Virus record (IMG/VR): IMGVR_UViG_3300044825_000404
Coordinates: 1 to 52,032 of that record
Reading direction: 5' to 3' (one strand)
Length of the DNA stretch: 52,032 nt
Origin: a virus
Taxonomy: Duplodnaviria > Caudoviricetes
Shown: piece by piece, positions 2,453-35,700 of the stretch
Layout: the number at the start of each line of letters is the position of its first letter
Numbering within the stretch: the stretch's first letter is position 1
Made by a program: the position numbers and the translations under genes
The notes under the pieces: generated by a model
Told to the model about the DNA's origin: nothing
The model's database searches: none
What the model saw: the letters and a program-made list of their open reading frames with translations, nothing else

Positions 2453-5400
2453 TTACTTTCTCTTCTGGACAGCCAGTCGCATGGCGTCGAGGTTGTCGGT
2501 GAACTTCACCCGCCCGCCCTTGGCCATCTCGACATTACCTTTGATGGCGCGTTGAGGAATCTCAAACTCCGACACCCCATCTTCAGTCTGCGACCTCACG
2601 CGGTATCCGGGCTCGTAGGGCGTGCGCTTGGCTTTGCCTGTCTCCGGGTCTTTGATCTGCTTCATGCCGCCACCGCTTGTGTCGTACATGATTTGATTGC
2701 CAACTCGGGTGCGGAACAGTATCTCGTAGGGAGCCTTGTTCTTGCGGGCACTGTCCTCAGTGAAGACACGCTGCCCCTTGTCGTACTTGTAGTCAAAGCC
2801 TTCCATCATCTTGCGGGTGGCTTCGGCTTCTGCCTGGATGCGGTCGCGCAGTGAGGTGTGGAAGTCCTGCAGCGTGGTCAAGTCCTTGGCGGCGGTCACC
2901 GGGGCTTTCATCCCTGCATCTTCCGCAGCCTTGGTGATGGCGTTTGCAGCGGCTCGTCTGATAGCGCCACCTGCCTGCTTCTTGACCGCCCCGCCATTCT
3001 TCTTGCCCAGAATGACGCGATCTAGGCGGCGCTTGTACTCGCCCAGTTCATCCAGGTACTGCTGATCCACGATCTGGTGCGGGAACACCTTCTGGATCGT
3101 GCCGGTGAAGTCCTGCGGGCGTTGCGTCCTCATGATGTGTTGAGTGGCATCAGGGAAGGACAGCACGAAGGGCGTCAGAGCCTCCTGGTGGCCAAGATAG
3201 CGGCCGCGGATGCCCTTGCTGTAGGTCTCGTGAGCAGCGTCGTCTGTCAGTTTTGCCCCAGGCACCAACTCGCCAATAGAGTGGCCAGTTAGGTTGACCT
3301 CCATGTTCCGCAGGTCAGGACTGGTGATGGCCCACTCAATATCCAGGCCGTTGGGCATATTCGTGGCCTGAGTGAGTTCGGGCGTCTTCATGCGGCTCAA
3401 GAACCACTTCCGCAACTCTGGGTTCTTCTTCATCTCCGCCAGAGCACCCGCAGGGTCTGCAATACCGGGCCACTCCGGGAATGAGATCTGCACCCGCTCA
3501 CCGGTCTTGGGGTTCTTCTTCTCATACCCCGCGGCAATGACCGTGTCGAACAAGTTCATGTCATTGCGGCTCATCTTGCTGTAATCGATAGCCCGCAGGG
3601 AGGCGTCGGCAAAATGCTGCGCGAAGTTGTTGGCCACGCGGCCCATAGCAAGGTGCTGACCCAACACCCGATTGGGCTCGAACAGGTTGGCCACCTCGGT
3701 GACCTTGTTCTGCACCATCTGAGCAGGGCCTTCGTTGGATGCCCAGAACAGCGGGTTCTTCATGTCCAACTTGCCAAGACCGTAACGAGAGCCGCCCTGC
3801 TGCAGGGCCCCGATAGGCTCACCACCAAGGGTCTTCAGATATGTATCGGCCAGGGTGTAGTCGCCAGGGAAGGCGACATTGATGTCCCCGATCTGGGGCT
3901 GCACTACCTGAGACTCGGGCACTTTCTTGGCGGCTTCGAGTTCGTACTCAATGCGCTTGATCCGCTCGTTCTCCTTGCGGGAGCGTCCGGCAAGGTTCTT
4001 CGTGTCCCCAGGCTTGCCGCTTGTAACGTGCTCACCGAGCATCTGACGGCCAACACGCTCCGCATGGGCGGCAATCTCTTCCTTGGACTTGGCAGGAGCC
4101 CGCGGCAGGATCAGCGGCAGGGATCGCTCGGCCTCTTCCTTGGCAGCCTTTACCGCCTTCGCCCCCTTTGCCCCCTTGACCAGGGCTGCAGGCGCGGCAG
4201 CAAGAGCCCAGGGGCCGGGAGTGTTGGACATGGCGGTGACGTTTGCGTACACCTCGCGCTCGGCTTTCGTGGCGTCTTCCGGCAGATCCATGCCGAAGAT
4301 GGCCCGCATCCCTGCGCCTCGAACGCCACCGCCTACCAGTTTGGAGCCGATAGAACGCTCTTGGCCTACAGCCCCGCCAGTGGCCAACTCCAGGCGCATC
4401 GTGTCAGGGTTGTCGGAGATGCGGACGGAGCCGCCCTTCTTGTAGCCGTACCGACTCTGGTCTTTCAACTTCTTGAACCAAGCATCTTGTATTTCTTGCG
4501 GCATCTCATTTTCTTGAGCCATCCGCTTAAAGTCATCTATTGTGTAGAAGCCCGGCGCAATTTCTTTAGAGAACCCTGGGAGTCTTTGACCCTGAGTTAC
4601 CTTAAATAACCCAGTGTTTTGCATATCCCGCACATCCGACCACTGACCACTCTTCACAAAGTCCTGCACGAACGGCAGGTAATCTTCCTTGGGGGCTCGG
4701 TTTTGTTTGCCTTTGATCTGGGTGATTTCAAAGGGAATTTCTGGCTCAGGAATACCTTCTTTGGATCGCCACCATTGTGCAAAGGTTAGATTCGGGTCAA
4801 CAGTTCCTGCCTTGTTTCCCTCAAGCCACTCTTCCTGAAGCCTGTAGTAATCCGCTTCGCTTGGGCGTTGATCGCCGATAAATCCTTGCCTCGCTTGAGG
4901 ACGAGCAATCTCTATCGTTACATGAGGCGAACCCTTGGAGTCAACCAAAGAGTAAACCTTAGCCCGACCGCTCTTGATACCCTCCCATCCGCCATGGCCG
5001 TAGTAAAGAGACCCCGCTTCACCTGACCCCTCAGTCCAGTCAGGATGGCCCGGAGGCGGCTCGTAGCCCCGCACAGAGTGCCCCATGGAATCGGACTCAG
5101 CAGAGAAGGCTCCGGGCTTGTTCAGTTCAATCCACCGGTAGCCCTGCGGGTACTCCTTGTAGACCGGCAGACCTTCACGAGCAGCGGCAGTAGCCTTGGC
5201 GGCCTTTTCTGCCATCTCTTGGTCGTACTGATGAGCACGGCGTACTGCCTGCTCCATGGACATCTTTTCCAGTTGCTCAGGACGGATGCGGCCGGTGGCA
5301 AGGTCTTCCTTCAGGACATCGATCAGGTGGTCGAAGCCAAGTTCACGAGCATCAAGAGCAGCCCCCGCCTCGTAAACAGGGGCATCTTCTGGCAACTTTT

Positions 5401-9292: not shown

Positions 9293-9329
9293 CTCTTGCT
9301 CCAGTTACCCTGCGTCGTGCAGTGCTTGC

Positions 9330-9360
9330 ATTTTAATACGAAGTTAGAACCATGGGTCAA
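9330..9360 (-). promoter_or_regulatory. Sigma70-like promoter
   Basis: TTGACC-N19-TAAAAT; the spacer sequence resembles that of the promoter at 12048-12077. Confidence 0.5.
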
Positions 9361-9618: not shown

Positions 9619-9840
9619 TCATTGTGTTTTCCGCCTGTTTGCCCACCTGTCATCCAACTCAGCAATGAAGCCGCACATAGCCTCCTTGCTGATGTTCAGA
9701 TCCGTGCAGGTTCGGTGGTAGAAGACGGATGCGATCAGGAACTTCGTCTGCCATTCGTCGTCCTTGTACTGTTTCATGAGTTCAAGGACTCGACCGACGA
9801 CAGGGAACAGTCTCTCCTCCATGTCGCGGTCGAAGTTCAT
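9619..9840 (-). CDS. Hypothetical protein
   Basis: 73 aa; ATGA-coupled to the upstream gene; GGAGG RBS. Confidence 0.65.
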   Translation of the reverse strand: MNFDRDMEERLFPVVGRVLELMKQYKDDEWQTKFLIASVFYHRTCTDLNISKEAMCGFIAELDDRWANRRKTQ

Positions 9841-10268
9841 GACTGGGCCTCCACTGAACGGCGTAGTCCGTTGCGCTTCATCAAGATCCGCGCCTCGGTC
9901 TGGTCGGGCATCCGCTTGGCCTCTTGCGGGGTGTTGCGGCTGAGTTTCAGCGCCCGAGTCAGTTTCCGGTCCGCGGCCTCCATGTACAGATCGATCTGGG
10001 AGGCGTTCTCGCTCGGCAGCAGAATGCGGTAGCCCGTAGAGGTACCCGTGAGGTACTTGCCCTGTCCTAGCAGCATATTGCGGACATAGTCCGTTGCGGC
10101 CAACTCGATCAGGGACAGACGGTCATAGACGGCCTTGGGCGCTGACTCCGGCATCTCGATCTCAAGCAACTCGTGGACGAGTTTGGTCGGGATGATGGAG
10201 CCGTACTCAAGCATTCCCATCTTCTGCAGGGTGGAGTAGAACTCCTTGTGGGCTTCGCGGTTAGACAT
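9837..10268 (-). CDS. Accessory protein coupled to the RAMP-like gene
   Basis: 143 aa; start overlaps the stop of 10261..10860; GAGGTG RBS. Confidence 0.75.
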   Translation of the reverse strand: MSNREAHKEFYSTLQKMGMLEYGSIIPTKLVHELLEIEMPESAPKAVYDRLSLIELAATDYVRNMLLGQGKYLTGTSTGYRILLPSENASQIDLYMEAADRKLTRALKLSRNTPQEAKRMPDQTEARILMKRNGLRRSVEAQS

Positions 10269-10860
10269 GGCGCACCTCTGCCATAGCGCGACCGAACTTC
10301 GGGCGGAAGTCTCCGTAGCCGCAATACTTGGCGTGGAAGTCCACGATGCGCGTGATGCCGTCAGGGTCGATGATCTTGTCGTCGAACTCGATTTCGGTCT
10401 TAAACGACCACTGGTGAAAAATCGGGAACGCCTTGGCCAGACGCTTCTGCCCTTGAGGCAGATTCAGCATGATCCGGAAGGTTGGGTTCTTGACGATGTC
10501 CGTGACCGCTTTGACCTTGTCCATATCGCGGAAGGTCAACGGAATCTTCTCCTGCGTTACGAACAATGCGCCCCGGATGTCGGCCTTGCTCGTCTTCGCT
10601 ACGCGAAACGCTGTTGCGGCAATGGCCTCTGACAGCCAAGATGAGGGGACGTACACGCCTACTTTCTCATCGAAGTAAGACTTGCTCTCCATCTCCAGAT
10701 CGCGGTACTCAAGAAAGTCGTCGTCAGTGCGCTTGGTTTTCTTGTCGCTGATGGCCGACATCCTCTTGGCGAATCGGTTGAACCGATCCACTGTTTGAGG
10801 GTTGTTCATCAGCAGGGGGCTGACACCAGTGATGGTGATCTCTGCGTTTCTCATCGCCAT
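10261..10860 (-). CDS. Stand-alone Cas7/RAMP-like RNA-binding protein (putative guide-RNA effector)
   Basis: N-terminal strand ITITGVSPLLM, central VYVPSSWL, PIFHQWSF strand and C-terminal G-loop GYGDFRPKFGR match the RAMP/Cas7 motif order. Lies directly downstream of the pentamer array. Confidence 0.75.
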   Translation of the reverse strand: MAMRNAEITITGVSPLLMNNPQTVDRFNRFAKRMSAISDKKTKRTDDDFLEYRDLEMESKSYFDEKVGVYVPSSWLSEAIAATAFRVAKTSKADIRGALFVTQEKIPLTFRDMDKVKAVTDIVKNPTFRIMLNLPQGQKRLAKAFPIFHQWSFKTEIEFDDKIIDPDGITRIVDFHAKYCGYGDFRPKFGRAMAEVRHV

Positions 10861-10882: not shown

Positions 10883-10904
10883 TAAAAGCGCCGAGGTTCC
10901 CGGC
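10883..10904 (-). terminator. Hairpin with U-rich tail between the array and the RAMP-like gene (possible attenuator or processing site)
   Basis: GCCGGG-AAC-CTCGGC followed by GCTTTTAT on the minus strand. Confidence 0.35.
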
Positions 10905-10909
10905 TCAGT

Positions 10910-11455
10910 AGGTCTAAGCGACCTGGGAAGCACACCAAGATGTGTTGCCCGCGTTGCTTAACGATGCTGATCTTTCCGATGCTATGCGCTTCTATTCGCT
11001 TCCTAGCATTGGGTCTAAACGACCCGGAATGCCCCCGTAAGAGGCAGTCCGCGTTGCTTATCGCTTCAGTGCCATGCTCATCTCTTCTATGCTGTTTATT
11101 GCTCTTCGGTTCTCTTCAGTCGGGCCAAACGACCCGGCTAGTCCCCAGAAGAGACTGGCCGCGTTGCTTATCGTGACTTTTCATTACGGTGCACAGCACA
11201 TCAAACCAATGCGAAACGATGCTTTGCCTTTGGGCCTAAGCGACCCGGCTTGCACCCAGTGGACACAAGCCGCGTTGCTTGTCGTTGCTCTGTCTTGCAC
11301 AACTGTGCTATCCGTTGCAGTGCTCTTCATTTGAGTCTTGCGACCCGAAAAGCCCACCGTGATGGGCTGTTCGCGTAGCAGAGCCGTTCTCTTCATTGAT
11401 TTGCTATTCACTGCATATCAGTGCATTGCTCTTCACTGGGAGCCGAAGCCCCCGT
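10910..11455 (-). ncRNA. Array of five hairpin-bounded guide-like RNAs built from G(C/A)A-NN pentamers
   Basis: Conserved blocks GCGTTGCTT at 10951, 11051, 11161 and 11272 and GCGTAGCAG at 11373, each preceded by a CGACC(C/T)-containing double hairpin. Between them 62 of 65 plus-strand pentamers have C at position 2 (consensus (G/T)CNN(T/A)). Confidence 0.88.
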
Positions 11456-11999: not shown

Positions 12000-12047
12000 G
12001 TTCAGTTACCTTTCTTCGTTGCCGCAACACCGTGTTGCGATGGGTGA

Positions 12048-12077
12048 ACTTTAATACAAAGTCAAAACCCGTGTCTA
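12048..12077 (-). promoter_or_regulatory. Sigma70-like promoter probably driving the array/RAMP operon
   Basis: TAGACA-N18-TAAAGT, followed by a 5' hairpin (GCAACAC/GTGTTGC, 12024-12038) and GGTAACTG. Confidence 0.5.
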
Positions 12078-12914: not shown

Positions 12915-13340
12915 CTAAATGTTGGCTTCTTCTTGGAGTCGTTTTTGTCTCCTATAACTGTTGCCGTGCTTCCAGTTTGGGTTGCGCTCATCGTATTGAT
13001 AGGTGCCATGGAACCTCCTGTCATGGACGTTGTTCTTTGGCGTATCCCACCTTAGATTGACCAGTCGGTTGTCGTCCCGAACATTGTTGTTGTGACAGCA
13101 TTGCATTCCTACTGGCTTCGGACCAACGAACGCCTCTAACACCAAGATGTGAACAAAGACTAGCCTTTTTTTAATCTTGACCCTGATGTATCCGTCTGCG
13201 TTCTTCATTGGCTTCAATGGCCTTTCAGAAAAACGCCTTTCTCCATAGAGTTGATGCCAACCTGTGTGTTGCTTCCTTCTGACGAATCCAAGTTCAGATA
13301 CCTCGTAGTTCGTAGCCCAAGGAACATCGGCCCATTTCAT
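12915..13340 (-). CDS. NUMOD4-HNH homing endonuclease
   Basis: YEVSELGFVR (NUMOD4-like) and VHILVLEAFVG...CCHNNNVRDDNRLVNLRWDTPKNN (HNH); visibly AT-richer than its neighbours. Confidence 0.9.
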   Translation of the reverse strand: MKWADVPWATNYEVSELGFVRRKQHTGWHQLYGERRFSERPLKPMKNADGYIRVKIKKRLVFVHILVLEAFVGPKPVGMQCCHNNNVRDDNRLVNLRWDTPKNNVHDRRFHGTYQYDERNPNWKHGNSYRRQKRLQEEANI

Positions 13341-15145: not shown

Positions 15146-15997
15146 TCAACCTCCGTGGTACTTGCCTTCAACGATCTTGGCGAAATTGCTTGGCCGAATG
15201 ATCCATTCGAGATCGGCCTTGAACGGGTTGTCCCGCTTACCCTCCGACCGTCCGGTCAGGAACTTGGACTTGCCGATGTAGCCGAAGAACGACCGCCACC
15301 AGTCCAGGATCGACGCCTCGGTAGCCTCCTTCCCGTCCTTGATCAACTCCTGCGCCACCTCCCGCCACCTGCTCCGCAGTAAGCCTTGACGGATGTCGTT
15401 CCAGACCTCGACGCGGTTGAGGATGGGGAGAGTCTGGTGGTAGAGGTCGATGACGGCTTGGTGGCTGCATTCCGGCAACTTCACCTTCACCACCTCAGGT
15501 TCGGCGTTAGCCGGACGACCAGTTACGTTAGTAACTGGTGAATTTAATAACGCTTTCGCTTTCGCTTCAGGCGGTTGGATAGCAGTGGATTCCTGCTGTA
15601 CATCCGTGGAGAACGGTTGTCCAACGGTTGTTTTTGCACCTAACTCATTGATTTTGTTCAGTGCATCATCATCACCCTCCATCAATGCCTTTGGCGGCAG
15701 AGGATGCTTGGGGTACTTGATCTGGATGCGCTGCCGGAACTTCGGAATGAAGCCGTAACGCTTCCCGGCCACCTCATAAAGGCGGATCAGGTCGGCGTCC
15801 GCAAGCATCTGGAGCAACTTGTCCCCGGACTCTCGGCGGATGTCGGCGCGTCTGGCCAACTTGAAACTGGTGGCCTCGAAGAGACCAACATCGTCGGCAG
15901 ACAGAAGGATGGTGACGTAGAACCACCGGGCTTCAATCGGCAGCGACAGGATCGCTTCCGACTCAAGCATCTCGTCACGGATGAGGCGATTCGGCAT
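15146..15997 (-). CDS. Phage replication initiator / replisome organiser
   Basis: N-terminal MPNRLIRDEML...ADDVG winged-helix pattern and C-terminal SKFLTG...ADLEWIIRPSNFAKIVEGKY; GGAGG RBS before ATG 15997. Confidence 0.8.
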   Translation of the reverse strand: MPNRLIRDEMLESEAILSLPIEARWFYVTILLSADDVGLFEATSFKLARRADIRRESGDKLLQMLADADLIRLYEVAGKRYGFIPKFRQRIQIKYPKHPLPPKALMEGDDDALNKINELGAKTTVGQPFSTDVQQESTAIQPPEAKAKALLNSPVTNVTGRPANAEPEVVKVKLPECSHQAVIDLYHQTLPILNRVEVWNDIRQGLLRSRWREVAQELIKDGKEATEASILDWWRSFFGYIGKSKFLTGRSEGKRDNPFKADLEWIIRPSNFAKIVEGKYHGG

Positions 15998-16217
15998 CGT
16001 CGCCTCCGTTCTGCCACTGACCAAAGTACACGGCCTGATCTTCAGCCTCCTCAAGCAGCCTGGGCAGGTCTTCCAACAGAAGACGGGCTTGGCGGATTGA
16101 GAAGTAGATGTCGACGACCCGCTCGGTGCGGCGGTCGTGGGACTTGAAAGCGATCAAGCCGCCTTCGGTGACATGAACAAGGATCTCGTCCTCGTGGACG
16201 GGCTTGTAAGTTGGCAT
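15975..16217 (-). CDS. Hypothetical protein upstream of the initiator
   Basis: MPTYKPVHEDEILV...; its AAGGAG RBS sits inside a long stem. Confidence 0.65.
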   Translation of the reverse strand: MPTYKPVHEDEILVHVTEGGLIAFKSHDRRTERVVDIYFSIRQARLLLEDLPRLLEEAEDQAVYFGQWQNGGDDAESPHP

Positions 16218-23537: not shown

Positions 23538-26500
23538 TTACCGCTTCGATTTTAGATAGTCAAGCGGAGATTTCAAAGCGGGTGGCGGAAGATCTTTTGG
23601 CCCCTTTGACCGCGCCCGATGCCGGATGTTGTGCATCATCTCGTACAACTTGTCGGTTCCGGCCTTGGTAGAACCGTTCCCGAGGGCGGAAACCACATCC
23701 GCCGGGAAGACAAACTCCCCGTCAGCAAGCCATGCCGGAATGTCGTCGGACTGGCCATCACCCTCCCCGGCAACGTGCTTCCCATCCTTGAAATCCTCGC
23801 GTCCGCCCTTGTGGGTGGGGAGGCCGCCAGACTTGGCCATCAAGGGCATGGGCATCCCGCCTTCCTTGGCCATCAGGGGCATCACATACCCGCCCTTTGC
23901 ATATCCCACAGGCTCTTCAACCTTTGGAGCCTCCGGAATGTTGAGGATCTTGTCGATCGGCTCTTCTTCCCCGTAGGAGTAGTAGGGTTCCGGAGCAGGG
24001 GTCTGTTGAGCCTGGGGCACACCCATGCGCTCGGCCAGGATGGCCGCCAGACGAGGATCAATGTTCTGCATCATTTCTTGTCTACCTACTTGCTCTTGAG
24101 CCTGTCGAAGTTGGGCCAGAGGGTCGATGTACTGTTGAGTGACTCGGGACGGCAACATCTGCGGGGGCAGGCGGCCATACTCCCCAGAGGTTCCTTCTAG
24201 GACGAAAGAAGGCAGTCCAGTCTGAACCGGGAAGTTCAAAGTGGGCTGACGAGTTGTAGCGGGCTGTTGAGGAGTCGGCTCACTCGTCAGTTGGCTTGTC
24301 AGTTGACTTGTGTCTTGTCCTGCTGAGGTAACTGCTTGAGTAGCAATCACCAACGCTTCATCTGGGTTCACACCCAACTTCGTGACCGTATTGACAACCG
24401 CATCAATGGCCGTCGTGGCGGGAGCGCCAGAGTTCACGGCAGAAGTCACGGCATTAGAAATGGCCGTGTTGACCGCCGTGGCCACATCCGTGCCCGTACT
24501 GACCGCCGTATCCACAGCAGTGGAAACCGCTGACTCGACTGCGCTAGAAGTTACCTGCTGAACGTCCGCTCCAGTTTCTACCGCCGTAGAAATTGCAGAC
24601 GAAACTGCGGTGGTGACCGCCGTATTGAGTGCTGTCTGCGTATCCGTCCCAGTGCTAACCGCAGTATCAACAGCAGTAGAGATTGCAGTGCTAACAGCGT
24701 TGCTCGTGGAAATGTTGACATCAGCCCCAGTTTGCGCCGCCGTAGAAACCGCAGAAGACACCGCGCTTGAAACCGCCGTGTTCACCGCGGTATCGGTGCT
24801 GACGCCCTGACTGACAGCGGCTTCCACTGCAGAGGTCACCGCAGAGTTCACCGCGGTAGAGACGGATGTGGCCGTATCGACACCAGTCGTCACAGACGCA
24901 ACCACTGCACCACTGACCGCAGAATCAACCGCCGTAGACACAGCAGTAGACACATTCGTGCCGGTGCTCACGGCAGTAGAAACGGCTGTGCTGACCGCAG
25001 AACTGACCGCGCTACTTACCGCAGTGCTGACATCCGTGTTCGTCGCCGTAGCGGCAGCCACCGCAGAATTAACTGCGCTGCTGACAGACGAGTCGATCGC
25101 CGTGCTGACATCAGTACCGGTATTGACGGCCGCAGCGATGGAGTTGTTGACCGCAGAAGAAACCGCTGAAGTCACCGCAGTGCTGACATTTGTTCCCGTG
25201 TTGGAGGCGGAGACAACAGCAGAGGAGACGGCAGAGTCAACCGCCGATGTCACGGCAGAACCAACCTCTACACCCGAGGCAATAGCCCCAGTCACCGCAC
25301 TCGTCACAGCGCCGGAGACTGACTTATCAATCACCGATCCGGGATCAGCCCCCGTGTTGACGGCAGTAGAAACGGCGTTGGAGACTGAGTTGCTGACCGC
25401 AGTAGAGACATCCGCGCCAGAGTTCACCGCCGCATTAACGGCACTGGTCGTGGCACTCTCTACAGCCGCAACAACATCCGTCCCGGTTTGAACTGCGTTG
25501 TTGACCGCAGCAGAAACTGCCGTTGAGACAACCTGACCTACATCTGTCCCTGTGGACAAGGCTGTGGAGATGTCCGTCTCAAGGTTCGCCAGATTTGGGA
25601 ACTGAGCCTCAAAGAACATCTGCTCAAGGTTCTTCTGCTCCTGAGTTTTTTCAGCGGTGGCGGTCTGTTGAATCGGCTGCTCCTGCGCCATAACGCTAGG
25701 CGCGGGCTCAATAGATACCGGGCTTGGGGCTAACACAGGTTCAGCCACAGGCTCCGGCACAGGGGCTGGCACAGGGGCTGGCGCAGGAGAAGGAGCAGTA
25801 GAAGCAGCGGGAGCAGGAGAAGGAGCGGGGGCGGCCTCAACTGGAGGGGCGAATGTTTGCTCAGGCGCCGGTGCGCGGAACTCAGACTCCGCCTGGACAA
25901 TTTGATTGACGATGCCAACCGCTTCAGGGATCGACAGCCCTGCATCAATAGCGGCATCTGTCGCGGCGTTGGCCACAGTCAAAATATCAGCACCCGCACT
26001 AGAAGCCGCAGCGACGGCAGATGTCACGGCATCCACAATCGAACTGGTCGTGTCTGCGCCAGACAACACAGCCGACCCAACCGCCGCGCTCACAGCCGAG
26101 TTCACCGCCGTAGAAACATCAGAACCTGCGCTGATGGCACTGCTTACGGCGCTGTTGACAGAACTCGTGATTGCATCAGCGACACTTGCTCCGGTATCAA
26201 CAACACTGGATACAGCACTGTTGACCGCGCTAGTCACTGCGCTTTGAACATCCACACCAGAACTGACTGCGGATGCAACCGCAGAACTTACCGCAGAGTT
26301 GATGGCCGACCCGGCGTTAGATCCTGAATCAATCGCACTGGTCACGGCACTTGAAACTGCGCCACCAATGGCTGCAGATGGTTCAGCGCCAGAAACTATG
26401 GCCGAATTTACTGCGCTATTGACAATACTTCCGACAACCGAGGTCGCAGACTCTCCGGACTGCACAGCGGTCGAAACCGCATCAGAAACAGAGGAGGAGA

Positions 26501-29500
26501 TGGTGTTGCCAACATCCGCTCCTGAAGAGATGCCAGAACTGATTGAAGAGGCAACATTTGAAGCAACGCTTTCAACAGTAGAACCGGTTGCAGCCTGCTC
26601 TGTAAAGCCCAGTTCTCGATAGGTTGTCGGTACGCCCTTCTCATCAAAGAACGCCACCATGTCGGGCGTTGCGCCAGGAGGCAGAGAAGTCGGCCGCTCG
26701 CTTACTTGCGCCCGATCGCCAACGATCTCAGAGATCCGCTCCTCCTTGGCGATCTGACGATCAAGGTCCGTTTCGGTGGCGACCTTCTCGGCGGCAGGAG
26801 TAAATCCAATCTGCCCCGCAGAGCCGGTGATGAGTTCAGGACCGACCGCCTGAACATCCACAGTTGAGGGCTGATAAGTGATGGCCGTTGGGCCACCCTC
26901 AAAAGTCATCTGCGTGGGAGTGCTACGACCCAGGAAGATCAGGTCAGCAAAGTCTCCGCTCTCATTTGTCTTGGTCTGCTGAATAGCATCAGAGAGTCGC
27001 GCATCAGTGGTAGCCGCATCCACCATGGCCGTAAGCGCACCACTTGCGATGGTCGCTTCTGCAAGCGTTCGCGGCAGGCCCTCATCCCAGTTCTTGTTCA
27101 GCGCCAGATTGCTGATGATCTTCGCGCTGCCTTCTTCAGCGTTCTCACTGGCAACCTCGCCCAGGTAGCGGGTGAGGATGCCCTTACCCTTGGTCTCCAG
27201 GAAGTCTTTGGATGCCTGACCGAGCAGGGCAACAGCGTTGCCTGTAGAGCCACCGGCAATCTTGGCTTCAACCGACAGAGCGCCAGGAATGAGTCGTTGA
27301 GCCGCAGCAGAGGCAAGGCCGGAAAGACTGGCAACAGAGCGCCCAATCTTCAGCACCTCCTCGTTGCTTAGGCCCATCCGCATGGCCTCGTCCATCGTGC
27401 TTGCCGCAGTCTGGGCGCCATGGACGCCCGCGTTGGTCAGGATGGCCGCAGCCTCCCGAGCAAGCATTCCACCCCCAATCATCCTTGCGCTTGCCATGGC
27501 ACCACCACCGGCCAGGACTGTCGGAGAGGTCTCAGCAAGGAAGCCCGCCGCCTGCATCGGGTTGACACCGTACTGGTACAGAGTCGTGAAGAACCCACCA
27601 CCCGCAGCACGGATGGCAAGGTTCATGTCATCACGGTTCTGCTTGTAGACATCCGACAGAGACCTGTCGAGTTCATTGGCGTATGAAGCAAACCCTGCGC
27701 TGATGTCGCCCTGCTCACCTCGAACCAGATCAGCAATAGTGAACGGGGCGGCAGCCACAGAAGCCGCGCCCTTGACTGCTTGCTTCAGGACATCAGACCC
27801 AATCTGGGCAACCTCTGCAGGTTGCGTCCTACCACCCATGGCCTGCCACTCTTCAAAGGTTGGAGGCGCAATTTTGTTGCCCGCGGAGTCGGTCGGGACA
27901 AACTTGTCGATGTAGTCCAGATAGCGATCCATGTCGTTGAATCGCTTGCCCGTGGCCACAAAGGTCTGATCAGGCTTCGGAGGCGCTACCTTCTCAACCT
28001 CCTGAACTGTTGGCACACCACCCTCACCGGTGACCATCTGTTGAGCGGCCGCCGTGTAGTCGATTGCGGGCTCAGATGGCTGAACAGGTGGCTTGGTCGC
28101 CGTCTTGTCGGGCGTGAATCCCGTCGTAAGAGAGTCAACCGGAGCGCCCTCCATGCCCGTAGCGGCAGCAGAAAAGTCTGTCTGCGCCGTCTCAATCGGA
28201 GCAGTTTCTCCACGAAGAGGAACATTCTTCAGATAGGCAGTTGCCTCTCTGGTGTCAGGAACAACCGCGCCACGCCCAGAACCTGCTGCTGCAGCAGGCT
28301 CAGAGATCGTGATCTTGGGAATGCCCATCTGCAAGATGGGAATGCCGGTTGCTCTCGCGGTTGCAACGTCAATGGCATCAGGGATCCGATACTCCTTGCC
28401 CTGATACATGAAGGTGCCGGTCAATCCATCATTGAACGCCTTCATGCCCGCCTGATCAATACTTCCGGCGCTGCTGTAATCAGGTAGAGAAGCGACGCGT
28501 TGCTGCTCCATGTAAGCCTTATTGGCCTGCGATAGTTCGTCTTCCCCAGTGCGAGAGACGACATAGATGTTTCCAGAACGAGCCGGGAACTCAAAAGTTC
28601 CATAGCCGCGAGATGAGGCAAGAGCACTTGCTTCATCAAGCGTTTTGACATCCATGCTCGGATCAATCTGAAGAGCCTGATCTCGGCGGATGGACTCTGT
28701 TACATCCTTCTCAGTAGGAAGAGCGCCTTGAGGGAAGGCTTGACCTGCCTTTTGGCCCTCTGCGATCAGTTCTCTAGTTGGAGCCTGAGACGCATAGTCA
28801 ACGGCATTAAACAGATCAATCGCCGCGCCGATGAGTTGCGACGGATCCGCACCAGATCGAACCAAATTCAGCATCACCGCAGACTTGGCGGCGATCGAAG
28901 CATTCGGAGAGTCAGCCAACTGGCCAACAGCGTTGATGATGCTGTTGACGTTTGGCTTACTAGAGAACACTTCAGCAGCAAGATTGGCTGCGCCCTGGAT
29001 CTGATTCGGCGTGAAGCCAAGGTTCTTCAGGCCAGTCTGAGCGCCCGCACTAAGACCACCGACAAGAGCACCAACCCCCAGGCCACTCGTGTCTCCAGTT
29101 GCGATGGCTGATGGAATAGCCCCAATGAGTCCTTTCGTCGCTCCGCCCAGAATTTCGCCCGTAAGTCCAGGTCCAACCGCGGTCTGCACAGCGCCACTGG
29201 CTTGGGAAGCCAACTGGCCCGCTCCACCGCCTAGACCGCCAACAACAATCGACTTCAGGAGATCAGAGCCTGATGCGCCAGACGCAACACCACCAAGACC
29301 GCCAAGAACAGCGCCCCCGGCGATGGATCCTCCCATGCCAGTACCAAAGCCAAGAGCCTCGCCAATACCTGGGGCTCCCATGGTCGCACCAATAAAAGCC
29401 GCCGCGAGTCCAACCGGCTTCCGCCAATCTTCAGACTCGTCATACTTGTCAATGCCAAGAATTGTTCCGTTGGCATCCAAATTGATGATGTAGCCGCTAT

Positions 29501-32500
29501 CACCGCCAGTCTTGAGGTTCAGAGACTGACCAGTGATGTTGCCATTTGTGTCCGTGCTGACGGTCTGCTCAAATGCGGTGCCCGCAGGAGCAAAAGATGA
29601 GTCCGTATTGGTCTTGCCGGTTGTTCCGGCAATCTGATAGCCCTGAACACCTCCGAACGGGTCGCCTAATGCGATGATTGAATACTTGCCGAATTGCTGA
29701 GGAACCGCTTGTGGGCCCGCCTCTCCCGCATCCATGAATGCGTTCTGGCCGGTAATGCTTGACTTTGCGAAGTTGATGGCGTCTTGCAAAGAGAGAGTCG
29801 GAGCGCCCTGGCGATCCTCTCGCGCACCATAGTTGACGTAGTGCCTCTTCGCTTCGGCCTCTGTATCAATGCCCGCCTGTCCCAAATCGGGGTTCAGACG
29901 GACATATTCCTTCCAGTCAAATCCAGGTGGGACGGCTGAGAAGTTTTCCTCGCGGAACCCTGATTCTCCTGTGTACGGGTCGGAGAAGAATGGGCGCAAA
30001 TCTTGGCCCCAGTCATCAACCCCTTGAGCAGGAGCAGGAGCAGGAGCGGGAGCAGGTGCGGGGGCAGGTGCGGGGGCAGAGGTCTGTAGGCCATACTGCC
30101 TCATCAAGCCGCGAACGGTTGTCTCTGGAACTCTGAAGGTTTCAGCAGTAAGAGCAACCGCCTGATCAACCGGCATCCCTTCTGAGACCCAAGACTGCAA
30201 GAGGTCAAAAGCCTCCGACTCTGAGCCCTGAAGAGAAAACTGAGGCGTAGACCCTTGGGCGGCATCCAGAGCGCCTGTCGTCGTAACTTGGCCAGAGGTG
30301 TCTGCGGCTTGATCTACATCTGTAGAGGTCAACCCTGCGGCAGTAAGCGCCCCCGTGGTTTGGGCATCCTCAAGAGACTGATCAACTTCTGTAGCCTGAC
30401 CAGTTAGGTCGCCAGTGTCGATGAAGGCGCCGCCAGTAACAACATTGCCGCCTCCAGGAAGAGCGCCAGTAGTGACTCCGCCGGTCTCCCCGATGGTGGA
30501 GCCGGTCCCTCCAACGGTGCGCTTCTCTGGTTGGTTGTAGTCGTTACCAAGAACAGCCCACTCAGATGAAGGATCAAAGAGGCTCTTCGCCGCATCCGAA
30601 CCTTCCGGCTCCCAATCTTCAAGACCAAAGTTTACAAACTCACTTACGCCCGGAAGCGACATGAGTCTTTGGTTGTAAGCATTAGCGGCTTCTTCTTCGC
30701 CCTTCCTAGCAAACCCTTGTGTGACTATTTTTAGTTCTTTGCCAAGCGCGTTTACCTGAGCCGCAAAGTTCTTAGTCCAATCATAAAGTTGGTCTGCCGG
30801 AACACCCCATCCCAGATACGGATCAAGCGCAACAAAGTCAGCATTTGAATTTCTGATCTCATCAAGCAACTGCTGATCTGTTGCTTTGCCTTGGAATACA
30901 GGGTAAGGCGAAATAACAACACCCGCCCTTTGGCCCTTGGATTGCGTATCTTTAACCTTCTTGACTAGGTCTGAGCCTACAGGGCTATGAGGGTTCCAAA
31001 ACAACTCGTCAGAGATAACAACTTCATTCCCGCGCTGAAAAATTGCATCAGGAGACTTAATTGATTTGCTCGTTGGATCTTTTGTGGCATTTGATCCCGT
31101 AACCCAACTATTTGCATCTCCAAAGTTTGATAGCAAAGGCCCAGAGCCCGTCTTGTTAAAGAAGTCAGTAACTGTAAAGTTAGTCCCAAGAGCGCGGTTC
31201 CACAAGTTGACCGCATCCTGCGGCCTCATTCCTTGTTGAACAACCCAATCAAGCCCACGCTGCGTTGCCACCGCATCGTTTGCGCCGCCTTGATAGATGT
31301 ATTGCTTGAACCATTCCGGCGAACCGGCCACCGGAGTAGAAGCCGCTTGAGAAAGCGCAGAGCCAGTAATACCTGTCTGACCTGCGGCGCTCTCGGTGCT
31401 AGAAACATCTCTGCGCTGATTGTCTGCAACAGTGAGACCAGAATCCTTCTTGGCTAGAGTCGTTTGACTCAAGGTCTGGCCGATCTTGTCAGCCATCAGG
31501 CGACCAAATTCAGCGTTTTGATGCACCCCGTCAAGCAGGGAGCCTGCAGGGATCCCAACGCTACGAACATCAACAAATGGCAGGTTGTACTTCTGCGCCA
31601 GTTGCTGAATGCCTGCGTTGATCTGATCGGCAACCGTCGCGCTCTCACGGGTCAAATACCCGGCGATGTTGCCGCCGATGGAGTCCGCACCACCAAAGAA
31701 CGGAGACACCCCAACAAGAACAGGCGTTGATCCGTTGCGTTGAGCAATCTGGATCATCTGCTCAATGTTGCTCAGGGACTTGTTGGCATCCCCAAGTTTG
31801 ATGGCGTCTGCCGCTCCATAACGAAGCACAACCTGATCAGGTCGATTGGTTGAGATGTAGTTCTCAAAACTGCCGTAGTCTGTGTTCCCGGTCAGGGCAT
31901 CTTGAGAAGTCTGCCCGCCAGTAGCGACGTTGTTGACAACACCGCCCGTGTAGTCGGACAGAACACCTTCAAGAGAGTTGCCGCGAGAAGTATCCGCGCT
32001 ACCGTCCATGCGGTAGCCCAATACAGAACTGATGGAGTCGCCAAAGACGGTTGTCTTGAATGGCGAAGTTTCTCCAGATGCCCGGTAGTAGTCGTTGACA
32101 TTGAATTGCGTCCCCAGAGCCCGATTGAACTCGGTGACCGCCTGCATGGGGGTCCAACCCTTCTGCTTGGCATATTCAATAGCCCGTTGAGTAGCGGTGG
32201 CGTCATTTGCGCCACCCGCATACATATACTGCTTGAACCACTCAGGGGTGCCTTCCGTGGGCCCACTAGGTGCAGCCATCTGCGTTACGCTGCCCAAAGC
32301 ACCAATGTTTTCATTTGGAAGACCGATTGCATCTTCCATGAAGGACGGCACAGAACTGACATTGATGGGAGGCTGAATGTTTGCAGTCACCCCTCTCGCA
32401 GCAGGCAAACCTCCGACGCTTGTCAGCGCAGATGTGCTCAATCCCGAAAGATCTTGTCCGATGTCAATCGAATCATCCTCCGGTATGTCCAGAGGAGACT

Positions 32501-32546
32501 GATAGCCGTCCATGCGGTCTTCGTATTGATTGATGGGCAGTGCCAT
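23538..32546 (-). CDS. Giant (3002 aa) internal virion protein with an SGNH hydrolase, a putative glycan-related domain and V/S/A/T repeats
   Basis: FGDSIS/GGQTS/YGAAD/DGVH SGNH blocks; FDWKEYVRLNPDL module; C-terminal GDGQSDDIPAWLADGEFVFPADVVSALGNGS domain. Confidence 0.75.
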   Translation of the reverse strand: MALPINQYEDRMDGYQSPLDIPEDDSIDIGQDLSGLSTSALTSVGGLPAARGVTANIQPPINVSSVPSFMEDAIGLPNENIGALGSVTQMAAPSGPTEGTPEWFKQYMYAGGANDATATQRAIEYAKQKGWTPMQAVTEFNRALGTQFNVNDYYRASGETSPFKTTVFGDSISSVLGYRMDGSADTSRGNSLEGVLSDYTGGVVNNVATGGQTSQDALTGNTDYGSFENYISTNRPDQVVLRYGAADAIKLGDANKSLSNIEQMIQIAQRNGSTPVLVGVSPFFGGADSIGGNIAGYLTRESATVADQINAGIQQLAQKYNLPFVDVRSVGIPAGSLLDGVHQNAEFGRLMADKIGQTLSQTTLAKKDSGLTVADNQRRDVSSTESAAGQTGITGSALSQAASTPVAGSPEWFKQYIYQGGANDAVATQRGLDWVVQQGMRPQDAVNLWNRALGTNFTVTDFFNKTGSGPLLSNFGDANSWVTGSNATKDPTSKSIKSPDAIFQRGNEVVISDELFWNPHSPVGSDLVKKVKDTQSKGQRAGVVISPYPVFQGKATDQQLLDEIRNSNADFVALDPYLGWGVPADQLYDWTKNFAAQVNALGKELKIVTQGFARKGEEEAANAYNQRLMSLPGVSEFVNFGLEDWEPEGSDAAKSLFDPSSEWAVLGNDYNQPEKRTVGGTGSTIGETGGVTTGALPGGGNVVTGGAFIDTGDLTGQATEVDQSLEDAQTTGALTAAGLTSTDVDQAADTSGQVTTTGALDAAQGSTPQFSLQGSESEAFDLLQSWVSEGMPVDQAVALTAETFRVPETTVRGLMRQYGLQTSAPAPAPAPAPAPAPAPAQGVDDWGQDLRPFFSDPYTGESGFREENFSAVPPGFDWKEYVRLNPDLGQAGIDTEAEAKRHYVNYGAREDRQGAPTLSLQDAINFAKSSITGQNAFMDAGEAGPQAVPQQFGKYSIIALGDPFGGVQGYQIAGTTGKTNTDSSFAPAGTAFEQTVSTDTNGNITGQSLNLKTGGDSGYIINLDANGTILGIDKYDESEDWRKPVGLAAAFIGATMGAPGIGEALGFGTGMGGSIAGGAVLGGLGGVASGASGSDLLKSIVVGGLGGGAGQLASQASGAVQTAVGPGLTGEILGGATKGLIGAIPSAIATGDTSGLGVGALVGGLSAGAQTGLKNLGFTPNQIQGAANLAAEVFSSKPNVNSIINAVGQLADSPNASIAAKSAVMLNLVRSGADPSQLIGAAIDLFNAVDYASQAPTRELIAEGQKAGQAFPQGALPTEKDVTESIRRDQALQIDPSMDVKTLDEASALASSRGYGTFEFPARSGNIYVVSRTGEDELSQANKAYMEQQRVASLPDYSSAGSIDQAGMKAFNDGLTGTFMYQGKEYRIPDAIDVATARATGIPILQMGIPKITISEPAAAAGSGRGAVVPDTREATAYLKNVPLRGETAPIETAQTDFSAAATGMEGAPVDSLTTGFTPDKTATKPPVQPSEPAIDYTAAAQQMVTGEGGVPTVQEVEKVAPPKPDQTFVATGKRFNDMDRYLDYIDKFVPTDSAGNKIAPPTFEEWQAMGGRTQPAEVAQIGSDVLKQAVKGAASVAAAPFTIADLVRGEQGDISAGFASYANELDRSLSDVYKQNRDDMNLAIRAAGGGFFTTLYQYGVNPMQAAGFLAETSPTVLAGGGAMASARMIGGGMLAREAAAILTNAGVHGAQTAASTMDEAMRMGLSNEEVLKIGRSVASLSGLASAAAQRLIPGALSVEAKIAGGSTGNAVALLGQASKDFLETKGKGILTRYLGEVASENAEEGSAKIISNLALNKNWDEGLPRTLAEATIASGALTAMVDAATTDARLSDAIQQTKTNESGDFADLIFLGRSTPTQMTFEGGPTAITYQPSTVDVQAVGPELITGSAGQIGFTPAAEKVATETDLDRQIAKEERISEIVGDRAQVSERPTSLPPGATPDMVAFFDEKGVPTTYRELGFTEQAATGSTVESVASNVASSISSGISSGADVGNTISSSVSDAVSTAVQSGESATSVVGSIVNSAVNSAIVSGAEPSAAIGGAVSSAVTSAIDSGSNAGSAINSAVSSAVASAVSSGVDVQSAVTSAVNSAVSSVVDTGASVADAITSSVNSAVSSAISAGSDVSTAVNSAVSAAVGSAVLSGADTTSSIVDAVTSAVAAASSAGADILTVANAATDAAIDAGLSIPEAVGIVNQIVQAESEFRAPAPEQTFAPPVEAAPAPSPAPAASTAPSPAPAPVPAPVPEPVAEPVLAPSPVSIEPAPSVMAQEQPIQQTATAEKTQEQKNLEQMFFEAQFPNLANLETDISTALSTGTDVGQVVSTAVSAAVNNAVQTGTDVVAAVESATTSAVNAAVNSGADVSTAVSNSVSNAVSTAVNTGADPGSVIDKSVSGAVTSAVTGAIASGVEVGSAVTSAVDSAVSSAVVSASNTGTNVSTAVTSAVSSAVNNSIAAAVNTGTDVSTAIDSSVSSAVNSAVAAATATNTDVSTAVSSAVSSAVSTAVSTAVSTGTNVSTAVSTAVDSAVSGAVVASVTTGVDTATSVSTAVNSAVTSAVEAAVSQGVSTDTAVNTAVSSAVSSAVSTAAQTGADVNISTSNAVSTAISTAVDTAVSTGTDTQTALNTAVTTAVSSAISTAVETGADVQQVTSSAVESAVSTAVDTAVSTGTDVATAVNTAISNAVTSAVNSGAPATTAIDAVVNTVTKLGVNPDEALVIATQAVTSAGQDTSQLTSQLTSEPTPQQPATTRQPTLNFPVQTGLPSFVLEGTSGEYGRLPPQMLPSRVTQQYIDPLAQLRQAQEQVGRQEMMQNIDPRLAAILAERMGVPQAQQTPAPEPYYSYGEEEPIDKILNIPEAPKVEEPVGYAKGGYVMPLMAKEGGMPMPLMAKSGGLPTHKGGREDFKDGKHVAGEGDGQSDDIPAWLADGEFVFPADVVSALGNGSTKAGTDKLYEMMHNIRHRARSKGPKDLPPPALKSPLDYLKSKR
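24330..26590 (-). repeat. Two blocks of degenerate ~19-23-aa coding repeats (G-T/A-D-V-S-T-A-V-x-S-A-V-S-x-A-V) split by a Pro/Ala linker
   Basis: Visible in the translation of 23538..32546. Confidence 0.8.
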
Positions 32547-32547
32547 A

Positions 32548-32793
32548 TCAAGTTCCCGGATTGATAGCGCCGACTAGGGCCTGAGCCCACTCTTGCCAGT
32601 CGTCAAAGTTGTAGGGGCTTGGAACACCTTGGTTGGTGAAGACATCAATGGCCATCAGGCCCGCCCCCCAAGACTTCCAGTCCACCGTCGGGCCTGGAAT
32701 CTGAAGTTGCTGCTCTGCGTACAACTCGCACATCAGAGACGCCCATGACTCAAAGTCGTGATACCTCGGGTCATAGATCAGCCCGATGCTCAT
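32548..32793 (-). CDS. Small conserved virion-module protein
   Basis: YDPRYHDFESWASLMCE...FDDWQEWAQAL; coupled to both neighbours. Confidence 0.75.
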   Translation of the reverse strand: MSIGLIYDPRYHDFESWASLMCELYAEQQLQIPGPTVDWKSWGAGLMAIDVFTNQGVPSPYNFDDWQEWAQALVGAINPGT

Positions 32794-35700
32794 GTGCTGT
32801 ACCCGCGAACATCACCGATGTCGGCATCCACGATTACCTTACCCGCCTGATAGTTGCCATCCACGACGTTTGACACGAACTTCAAGCGCAACAAGCGCCG
32901 CTGTTCCTTCATGTCAATTTTGCCTGTCGTTGGACTAAAGGTATATGGGTTTGAGACCTGATCTTGCTCTTTCGGGTAGGGACGACCCACGACATACAAG
33001 TCCATGTCGCCCTGCTGCACGAAGTCAGGCTCCACCCGCTCCAGGCGCAGCCACCGGTTCTCGCCCACCGGAGAGGGCTGAGAGGGGCCGCCTGCGATCA
33101 GACCCAGGTCAGAAGTCGTGAACGAACTCTCGATGGCCAGGACGTTGGTGCCCTGAACGACATTCGTGCCGTACTCGTGCTGCCACAGGGAGACCTCGTT
33201 CGTATTGTTCTCCTCCCACCCTGCGTTGATGGGAAAGCGGAACACCTGCGAGAAGTACCCGGCAGAACGACGACCACCAAGAGCCTCGCCTAGGTCGTAC
33301 CAAGTGTTCTCTCGGATGTTGTAGATGATCGCGTCGTTGCACTCGGTAGAGTCGCCGCGGGGGTAGAACCACCAGATCTCGCCGAACCGGGGAACCTTCG
33401 TAGCCCAAACCTTCTGCGACTGCGAGTAGTTCAGGTTGTCGAAGAAGTGGTTCTGGTTCATGTCGTTGGGGATCTCTTTGACCACACCGTTGTACAACAT
33501 GAACCGGTCCACGCCGATCCAGAAATAGATACCGTCGTACTCAATAACGCACTGGCTTGACAGGATCGAGGTCTGACTGGAGATGATGTCGTAGCGCCAA
33601 TACTGTGGAGGCGTACCCGTCCCGCCGATGTAAGACACCCGGATCAGGCTGTCCAGGCTCCAGAACAGGCCAGAAGGCGCGTTGGAGCCGCCTCGAACGG
33701 GAAGACCCTTGACGATCTTGCCGGTGGCCACGTTCGTTTCGTTGGCGTCTGGCGAGTTCCAGTCGGTCGGATCTCCCGCAGAACAGTTCTTGATCAGGCC
33801 GTCATTGCCGTACACAAACACATACGGATGCAGGGCCACAACCCCGCCAGAGACGCTGATCACGCTACCCGTAGGATTCGCACCTCCGGTGTCTTTCAGG
33901 GGATAGACATCCGATCCGGTGATGTCGCCGTACAGAACAGGCGTGTTGATCGTGCTGTCGATCTGAGCGAGGTTCTGGCCAGGATGAGCCAACAGCAGGT
34001 TTTCACCCCCGGTGACGCTGTATAGACCATCGAACTGCCACAGGTTGTTCGGACTGGCCGTGAACTGCTCATCCACAGTGGCCACATCAATTGAGAACCC
34101 GTTGCTGTTGTAAGTTGCAGATACCGGGACGGAGAACCCAGAACTTTGGTTGACCGACAGAACCGTGAACTGGAACCCTGAACTGGCGATTGTGAAGGTC
34201 ACCGGGATTGAGAATCCTCCGGCGCTTCCGAGAGATGCCACGGGTACGGAGAAACCGGAACTTGAGTACACCGTGTTGACCACGACCGAGAAGCCGCTAC
34301 TGGTCACCACCGTGGCCACAGGGAACGAGAAGCCGGTGCTGTTGTAAACCGCCGTGACAGGCACGACGAACCCTGCACCAGTGCCGCCGATGTCCGTAGC
34401 GTTGGCTGACAGGATGTTGGTGGCGATGTAGCCGCGGCCGCGACTGGTGATGGTTACCGCAGTAACAGCCCCGCCGGATACGGTGATGGAGGCTTGAGCA
34501 CCAGTCCCAGAGCCGCCGATCAGCGGGACATTCGTGTAGGTCACCGTAGCATTGATCGTGGCCACAGGCACCGAGAAACCGCTTCCCGTACCGCCGATGC
34601 TTGACGCTAGAGCGGACAGACTGTCACCGGGTTGATAGCCGCTACCGCGATCAACGATGGTCACGGTCGTGACAACGCCGCCCGCAACCGTGATGTCTGC
34701 AGTCGCATCAATCCCAGAACCAGTCAGAGAGGTCAGCGAAACGCCAGTGTAAGTGCCGTTCGTGTATCCAGAGCCGCCAACGACCGTCCCCAGGGTGGCA
34801 ATCTCATTACCTGTGTATCCAGAGCCGCCGGTGATCGCTCCAAGCGTCTGCACACCGTTACCAATCGCGGATGCCGCGGCGCTCATGGTGTTGGCAACCG
34901 TGTATCCGTTGCCCTTGGTCGTGATCGTGACCGAGGTCACCGTGTTGCCAGAAACAACAATGGTGGCCTTTGCACCAGTACCGGACCCGCCTGTCAGAGA
35001 GACATTGGTGAATGTGCCGTTGGTGTAGTTAGAACCACCCGTGATCGCGCCGATCGTGTCGATGCCGTTGACAAACCCACCAAGATCAGAAGCGGCCGCG
35101 CTCAAGGTGTCCGAAGCGGTGTAGTTGATGCCTCGATCAGTCAGGGTGACCGATGTCACCGTCCCAAGCGCCACCACAATAGTGGCCTTGGCGCGGGATC
35201 CAGTGCCCCCAGTCAGGGACACGTTCGTGTACGTCCCGTCCGTGTAGTTGGTTCCACCAGTCGGAGCGTTGAGTGTGTTGATGCCGTTGCCGATCAGCGC
35301 AGCAGAACAACTCAGGCTGTCGGCCACGGTGTAGTTCTGACCAGGGTTGGTCACAGTAACTGCCGTCACTGCGTTTCCAGAGACCACGACAGTCGCTGTA
35401 GCACCAGTACCAGTACCACCCGTCAGGGGAACCGCGGTGTAGGTGCCGTTCGTATAGTTCGATCCGCCGGTGATGGCACCAAGAGTTGCGACCCCGTTTG
35501 TGAATCCGCCTAGGCTTGCAGAGAGACTGTCTCCGATGGCGTAATTCACCCCAGGCGCAACGAGTTGGACGGCAGAGACAGAGTTGTTGGAGACGATGAT
35601 GTTCGCCGTCGCGCCAGTGCCAGACCCACCGGTCAGGGGTGTGTCTCGATAGATTCCAATCGCGCTGATCGTGGTGGACGCGACCGACTGGCTCCTATTG

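Follow-up and report, generated by a model that had tools for sequence, protein, structure and literature searches.

The window analysed here, meaning the whole stretch of 52,032 nucleotides, is a 52-kb virus record (92% complete by CheckV) that carries a guide array upstream of a gene for a RAMP-fold protein. The array lies between positions 10905 and 11437 and consists of five minus-strand units of ~110 bases each, every unit being a pentamer tract followed by a conserved tail; the same five guides are found in two near-identical phage contigs. The features of the locus are the following.

9837..10268, minus strand: putative accessory (vap-like) gene, 143 aa, overlapping the end of vipr; assigned from weak homologs and synteny
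10261..10860, minus strand: vipr, encoding a 199-aa RAMP-fold guide-binding protein; downstream of the array
10890..10904, minus strand: terminator-like hairpin between array and vipr, from a consensus scan only
10905..11010, minus strand: vrRNA 1 (guide 10961-11010); related guides recur in relatives
11011..11120, minus strand: vrRNA 2 (guide 11061-11120, tail 11011-11060); coding-strand sense of a PriCT-2 primase motif
11121..11170, minus strand: structured 3' tail of vrRNA 3, including two constant pentamers (11161-11170); fold z=-2.37
11171..11230, minus strand: guide tract of vrRNA 3, twelve scaffold/NN pentamers; predicted to pair with the coding strand of the VapE/VirE motif VFIGTTN[KN][DE]EFL
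11231..11331, minus strand: vrRNA 4 (guide 11282-11331); no target found
11331..11437, minus strand: vrRNA 5 (guide about 11378-11437); fits the VYKIDRL motif of large serine recombinases

A period-5 pattern of C (at least 11 of 12 bases spaced five apart being C) occurs at 14 positions of the window, all 14 of them inside the array (10947-11379), and so did not arise by chance. Over the 56 guide pentamers of the five units, read on the RNA strand, three positions form a scaffold (G in 53/56, C or A in 48/56 and A in 45/56, with G at the second place in only 3/56), and the other two adjacent positions use all four bases. Given these fixed and variable positions, the pentamer register on which the original prediction was built is right. 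That prediction concerned guide 3, whose two constant pentamers (11161-11170) are followed by twelve variable ones (11171-11230) with the dinucleotides GT TT AT GG AC AC AA AA GA GA TT CT; these are present in the sequence as it had given them, and its exclusion of the constant pentamers was sound, since both pair with the 3' tail in the predicted fold. One caveat is that the scaffold G is missing from the 5'-most unit of guide 3 (CT).

With 10-12 pentamer units per tract, each joining a fixed triplet to a variable NN, the five RNAs fall within the 9-16 pentamer repeats of VIPR vrRNAs. Their conserved 3' tails are structured: across 17 tails from the window and its relatives, compensatory change is seen at 11 of 16 consensus pairs, and in the predicted fold a nested stem takes in the last two pentamers. 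The scaffold is G-(C/A)-A and not the canonical GGY, which we treat as a VIPR variant and not as grounds for exclusion because the papers admit related consensuses (NNNGG, YNNNG and NNNNG in the main text of 10.64898/2026.04.26.720920). Likewise, the non-canonical VIPR arrays of another report (10.64898/2026.10.21.760802) place a non-GGY fixed triplet beside a Vipr-like protein; the passages on these arrays name GAC, CAC, WGT and TGH, not GCA, with no targets given.

The vipr ORF has a single match among solved structures, the Vipr of Escherichia phage SUSP1 (PDB 36pp_D, E=1.1e-19), and its predicted model (pLDDT 87.7) has chains of CRISPR Cas7/Csm3/Cmr complexes as its top fold matches; it is a RAMP-fold Vipr protein encoded outside a CRISPR locus, with 257 homologs among 321 candidates. 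The accessory ORF matched nothing in Pfam or PHROG and, in a protein atlas, only unnamed viral clusters; by tblastn, in a comparison concerned with vap1, it returned only three records, none of them SUSP1-like. Its position is nevertheless syntenic: in Listonella phage phiHSIC and Vibrio phage 1.266.O, weak homologs of it directly follow the gene for the Vipr homolog. On the two sides of the VIPR region, intergenic stretches at 12019-12075 and 9313-9351 share a 39-base repeat (72% identity), and one copy overlaps the sole promoter-like site found, possibly an early promoter.

The locus is a VIPR system of a phage. As described in the main texts of 10.64898/2026.04.26.720920 and 10.64898/2026.04.26.720927, the type II VIPR systems of SUSP1 and a P. 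fulva prophage share with it a homologous Vipr, the arrangement of vipr plus one accessory gene, pentamer-repeat RNAs of ~100 nt with a structured 3' tail, a one-base skip, wobble-phase targets on either strand and the lack of a self target. It differs from them in its G-(C/A)-A scaffold and changed pocket residues, in a tail predicted to nest the last two pentamers within its stem, and in having all five RNAs upstream of vipr; moreover, the targets in those main texts are a satellite, lysis-lysogeny regulators and other VIPRs, whereas those predicted for the window are replication genes. The loci of phiHSIC and 1.266.O, both cultured marine phages, resemble it in their Vipr (49% identical), neighbouring accessory homolog and GCA-type repeats; their proteins are annotated as hypothetical and their arrays lie mostly between vipr and the accessory gene. 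The GCA-scaffold arrays beside the Vipr homolog of Vibrio 1.266.O and Listonella phiHSIC (L077:2340-2482, 3142-3306; L078:3136-3394) are unannotated, the stretch in phiHSIC being entered as ORF21 on the other strand. In more distant relatives (L031, L032 and L035) the GCA tracts are very pure and reach 18 units at most; some are placed after vipr or run on the other strand.

Aligned with SUSP1 Vipr, the window protein keeps D177 and R179 (as D184 and R186) and replaces the pocket residues H17, E71 and R138 with N19, W75 and F145; N19 and W75 are invariant in 120/120 homologs, and R stands at position 145 in 0/120. According to the main text of 10.64898/2026.04.26.720927, R138 binds the second scaffold G and is needed for silencing by SUSP1, and E71 belongs to the pocket by which purines are kept out of the third scaffold place. 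The replacements parallel two scaffold changes, namely absence of the second G and a purine in third position, as a correlation across one clade. Because R138 is absent from all 120 homologs, silencing by this clade is only predicted, and we count this against our preferred explanation. One could also read the loss of the three SUSP1 residues as the mark of a relic, a guide once selected in a system that is now inactive, for instance through a drifted scaffold pocket; however, the replacements are fixed across the clade and accompany a changed scaffold, the ORFs are intact, the tails covary, and guide content turns over between close relatives. We hold such a relic to be quite improbable.

Genes matched by guide 3

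In the published accounts (main texts of 10.64898/2026.04.26.720920 and 10.64898/2026.04.26.720927), Vipr forms a polymer along the RNA that conceals each triplet and lets the NN pair with double-stranded DNA, every third target base being skipped, and VIPR represses transcription from either strand. We searched IMG/VR viral contigs for the 24 variable bases of guide 3, read by this one-base-skip rule as a gapped exact pattern, and found ten exact matches representing eight distinct 36-base sites. All ten are in codon phase, the skipped base being codon position 3, and all ten ORFs fit PF05272 (E of 1.7e-57 or better), several of them also with Prim-Pol or PriCT-2. The sites encode VFIGTTN[KN][DE]EFL, then ADETGNRRW or a close variant, and 11 of the 12 skipped positions vary among the eight. 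The original prediction, made before this search, was that guide 3 decodes to the VirE/VapE helicase motif and that a gapped pattern would find such genes in frame, and both expectations were borne out. As an IMG/VR background we used the exact patterns of other guides, which gave six loci for a 16-base pattern, one and seven for two 18-base patterns, and none for a 20-base or a 24-base pattern.

Since the exact-match loci had been selected by the pattern, we added a test on genes selected by protein homology: seven cultured-phage VirE genes, hand-picked for host spread among the 40 tblastn matches listed. In 7/7 the best skip-1 site is the motif itself (18-21 of 24, above all 300 shuffles each), and skips of 0, 2 and 3 reach only 12-15 of 24. 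The 80% threshold used in the VIPR papers is attained by only two of the seven (ACF1 and EMB1, 21/24), and four other environmental genes score 14-17 of 24; at 80% or more, guide 3 has targets that follow the one-base skip in wobble phase. At the protein level, where the figure is an upper limit on the DNA match, 96/120 near homologs and 107/150 cluster representatives allow at least 20/24, and only 13/120 and 4/150 allow 24/24, both sets being biased upward, since the query used to collect them is one of the exact matches.

That the repeat merely resembles a protein motif by chance is a reading we put close to nil. It is true that the decodes were numerous, covering 44 guides in both orientations, and that some of the flagged matches seem spurious, but 24 specified bases led to 10/10 matches in the named family and phase, the 20- and 24-base patterns of other guides led to none, and the seven cultured-phage genes agree; we count chance as already refuted. 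Nevertheless, the motif is so conserved that the exact matches need not be the natural target, and one of them (L003, 42% GC) is a distant element. Mismatch-tolerant scans of small record sets with guide 3 matched 0/5 and 0/1. Among 401 genomes of the order to which a Fluviibacter contig with this Vipr belongs, one genome matched with up to three mismatches, as did one for the reversed control, and this sole cellular match lies in phase in a VapE gene.

The original prediction had also called the minus-strand RNA antisense to the coding strand, which holds for complementarity and fails for antisense action on mRNA. A vrRNA that pairs with helicase mRNA and blocks or degrades it would indeed suit a guide complementary to the coding strand, and RNA-targeting complexes also use Cas7-like folds. 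Guide 2, however, has coding-strand sense and could not pair with an mRNA, and VIPR as published (in the main texts cited above) binds double-stranded DNA and silences from either strand, so the vrRNA is not an antisense RNA; RNA targeting is, in our judgement, highly improbable. DNA targeting in wobble phase against the conserved core of an enzyme has been reported in the main text of 10.64898/2026.10.15.759431, where SUSP1 vrRNA4, directed at the recombinase of the F5 satellite, likewise reads codon positions 1-2 of a conserved stretch in an essential enzyme, such that silent escape fails. Guide 3 covers 12 helicase-motif codons and vrRNA4 six recombinase codons; unlike the stretch read by vrRNA4, the guide 3 motif is common to phages of several host phyla, and its matches lie in autonomous phages. 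Because the base skipped by guide 3 is the wobble base, a silent mutation would hardly be an escape.

An orthologous guide 3 unit is present in a relative whose Vipr fragment is 86% identical (L036), and by hand count 2/22 read bases have changed there against 8/33 scaffold bases. The change falls on a variable motif position and yields VFIGTTNADEF, which at least 4/259 natural proteins allow in full; the guide of the relative reads a natural variant of the motif, and the read bases are conserved. Four loci have another guide with the same tail as guide 3, and it fits the sequence immediately before the motif (17/22 at the DNA level, p=0.115; 18/22 in ACF1; 19/22 at the protein level), a fit that is suggestive only.

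Sister guides and the elements they fit

In all, 44 distinct guides were called, from the window and from loci L011-L038. The assignment is strong for a guide of six related loci, whose 18-base core gave seven matches, 7/7 in phase in Prim-Pol primase genes and extending to 23-24 of 26. It is moderate for guide 2, which scores 20/24 on the PriCT-2 motif, on the opposite strand, in three relatives of the Prim-Pol target phages (L049, L051 and L052), with no match in an exact 20-base scan of IMG/VR and 0/5 records matched in each of two scans with three mismatches; it is also moderate for the L025 guide on a PF10991 ssDNA-binding gene (17/20 DNA, 19/20 protein level). The large serine recombinase is a weak assignment for guide 5, which has one 18-base exact match, 20/24 overall, in a Resolvase/Recombinase gene (L076:1955-1990) and none in an exact 24-base scan of IMG/VR. 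Three further guides at 14/16 or 15/18 are weak, as is the fit of a sister guide to the DUF2800 of a DUF2800/SSB/VirE module. The tail end of guide 5 differs from the tails of the other four guides, and given this distinct tail and the serine recombinase fit the array seems aimed at more than one kind of element.

For guides 1 and 4, as for most of the 44, no credible target was found in the sets scanned. The guide 1 family is kept across relatives (L013:591-655, L018:4755-4804, L022:334-378), with units gained or lost. A 16-base scan with guide 1 gave six loci with three different sites, one of which extends to 19/20 in phase; we rejected this candidate, a 154-aa ORF without a Pfam match, because 16 of these bases had served to select it and the contig has no convincing support from any other guide of the window. 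The ssDNA-binding gene was not supported as a target of guides 1 and 4 in a protein-level comparison, and the single flagged matches of the L028, L030 and L019 guides are multiple-testing noise. With so many tests, p-values near 0.01-0.05 mean little alone, and those for guides scored on loci fetched with the same guide are circular and were not counted as evidence. None of the genomes retrieved is a good match for two or more window guides; the phages that fit guide 2 reach only 14-17/24 for guide 3. The sister guides appear to converge on the same kind of replication module as guide 3.

Where enough sequence is at hand (that is, leaving aside L003, L007, L008, L009 and L010, which are too short or partly fetched), the genomes matched by guide 3 are, by gene content, full phages, several of them temperate and Rauchvirus-like, and not satellites, which are without capsid or packaging genes of their own. 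Four (G001-G004) carry portal, capsid and terminase genes and a fifth (L005) portal and terminase; G002-G004 have DUF2800, an ssDNA-binding gene and a tyrosine integrase, the last of which the window is without. In terminase and DUF2800 these phages resemble Caulobacter phage Jess A (filed as Rauchvirus), whose own site scores 19/24 for guide 3. The original prediction that the target is the replication gene of a competing element is supported, the matches with enough sequence being autonomous phages rather than satellites or plasmids.

A satellite might still be the natural target of the same system, namely an integrated or satellite element with a VirE primase-helicase that parasitises this phage, the full phages being bystanders that share the motif. 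In the main text of 10.64898/2026.04.26.720920, a satellite is the common element for 18/20 SUSP1 targets. The serine recombinase motif fitted by guide 5 is akin to the SUSP1 target, and IMG/VR may under-represent satellites. Yet the sister guides fit an ssDNA-binding gene and, weakly, DUF2800, a module found in genomes of 35-63 kb, and a Resolvase domain is present in 0/5 complete target phages, from which it follows that guide 5 aims at a different element anyway. We therefore think it rather unlikely, though worth serious consideration, that guide 3 evolved against a satellite, and prefer phages as its targets. In one target family some primases (L040, L043 and L046) come with a DUF5906 helicase where close relatives have VapE, a possible module swap that would remove the guide 3 site.

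The window itself has no VapE gene, as predicted, and it has no self target, its best site for guide 3 being 16/24; in line with the expectation that the phage uses an initiator of its own, an O-like replication initiator is encoded at 15146-16054 (phrog_5810, E=4.8e-30). The likely rivals would be temperate or co-infecting phages with a replication system different from that of the window phage. Against our preferred explanation, the target genomes resemble the window only through weak protein matches, and at the DNA level they have no match to it. Among cellular records this Vipr (53% identity) occurs only on one 2.8-kb contig, from a Fluviibacter MAG, which carries vipr and a four-guide array (L021:256-646) and may be a host lead or a misbinned phage piece. 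In MW202545, the annotated relative closest in terminase, no array was present in the one stretch examined. Elsewhere, the window has a NUMOD4-HNH endonuclease gene (12915-13340, minus strand) and, in the structural region, two very long ORFs of 3002 and 1526 aa (23538-32546 and 32790-37370, both minus strand).

Proposed mechanism and meaning

From the array, the Vipr homology, the in-phase match and the conservation of the read bases, we propose, with a probability of roughly 0.85, that the guide 3 vrRNA and Vipr repress the VapE/VirE primase-helicase gene of a rival phage. Five vrRNAs of about 110 nt would be transcribed from the minus strand upstream of vipr. If the filament, triplex, skip rule and repression of the published SUSP1 work carry over, one Vipr subunit per pentamer would hold the three scaffold bases G-(C/A)-A and present the two variable bases, and these would base-pair with one strand of the DNA, passing over each third base. 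The register of guide 3 would be such that the base passed over is the wobble base of the conserved VapE/VirE helicase-domain motif; we infer that the locus is expressed, that the rival shares the host, and that the filament, in a phage that is co-infecting or resident, represses transcription of the primase-helicase gene by binding within it. Replication of the rival's DNA would thereby be blocked, and synonymous changes would give it no escape.

VIPR itself, wobble-phase targeting and non-GGY scaffolds are known in print. Neither targets among replication genes nor the pairing of a G-(C/A)-A scaffold with altered pocket residues was found in the main texts of the literature searched: VirE, VapE and primase are absent from those of 10.64898/2026.04.26.720920 and 10.64898/2026.10.15.759431, and we found no 2026 paper on VIPR with primase or helicase targets in phage. 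Since phiHSIC is a RefSeq genome, supplementary target tables and scaffold logos could already cover the clade.

Published descriptions of VIPR are only months old, and it is mainly from E. coli and Pseudomonas clades that natural targets are given in the main texts. An exact target predicted for a non-GGY clade indicates that the skip rule and register carry over, and guide 3 would extend VIPR targets to the DNA-replication genes of full phages. Because the contact residues have changed together with the triplet, the locus is a natural test of how Vipr reads its scaffold, and with its second scaffold type it could provide a programmable repressor that operates independently next to SUSP1 VIPR; the G-(C/A)-A subtype and near-matching target genes both occur in cultured phages, which makes it experimentally accessible. 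More tentatively, and with somewhat less than even confidence, we suggest that VIPR systems of the G-(C/A)-A clade form a subtype whose scaffold pocket has been rebuilt and whose dedicated task is to disable the replication module of autonomous rivals (primase, helicase and ssDNA-binding protein), with guide 3 acting family-wide. If so, guide 3, by reading in DNA what is conserved as a protein motif, would reach a large fraction of the VirE-type phages, and superinfection would be excluded by replication type rather than by strain.
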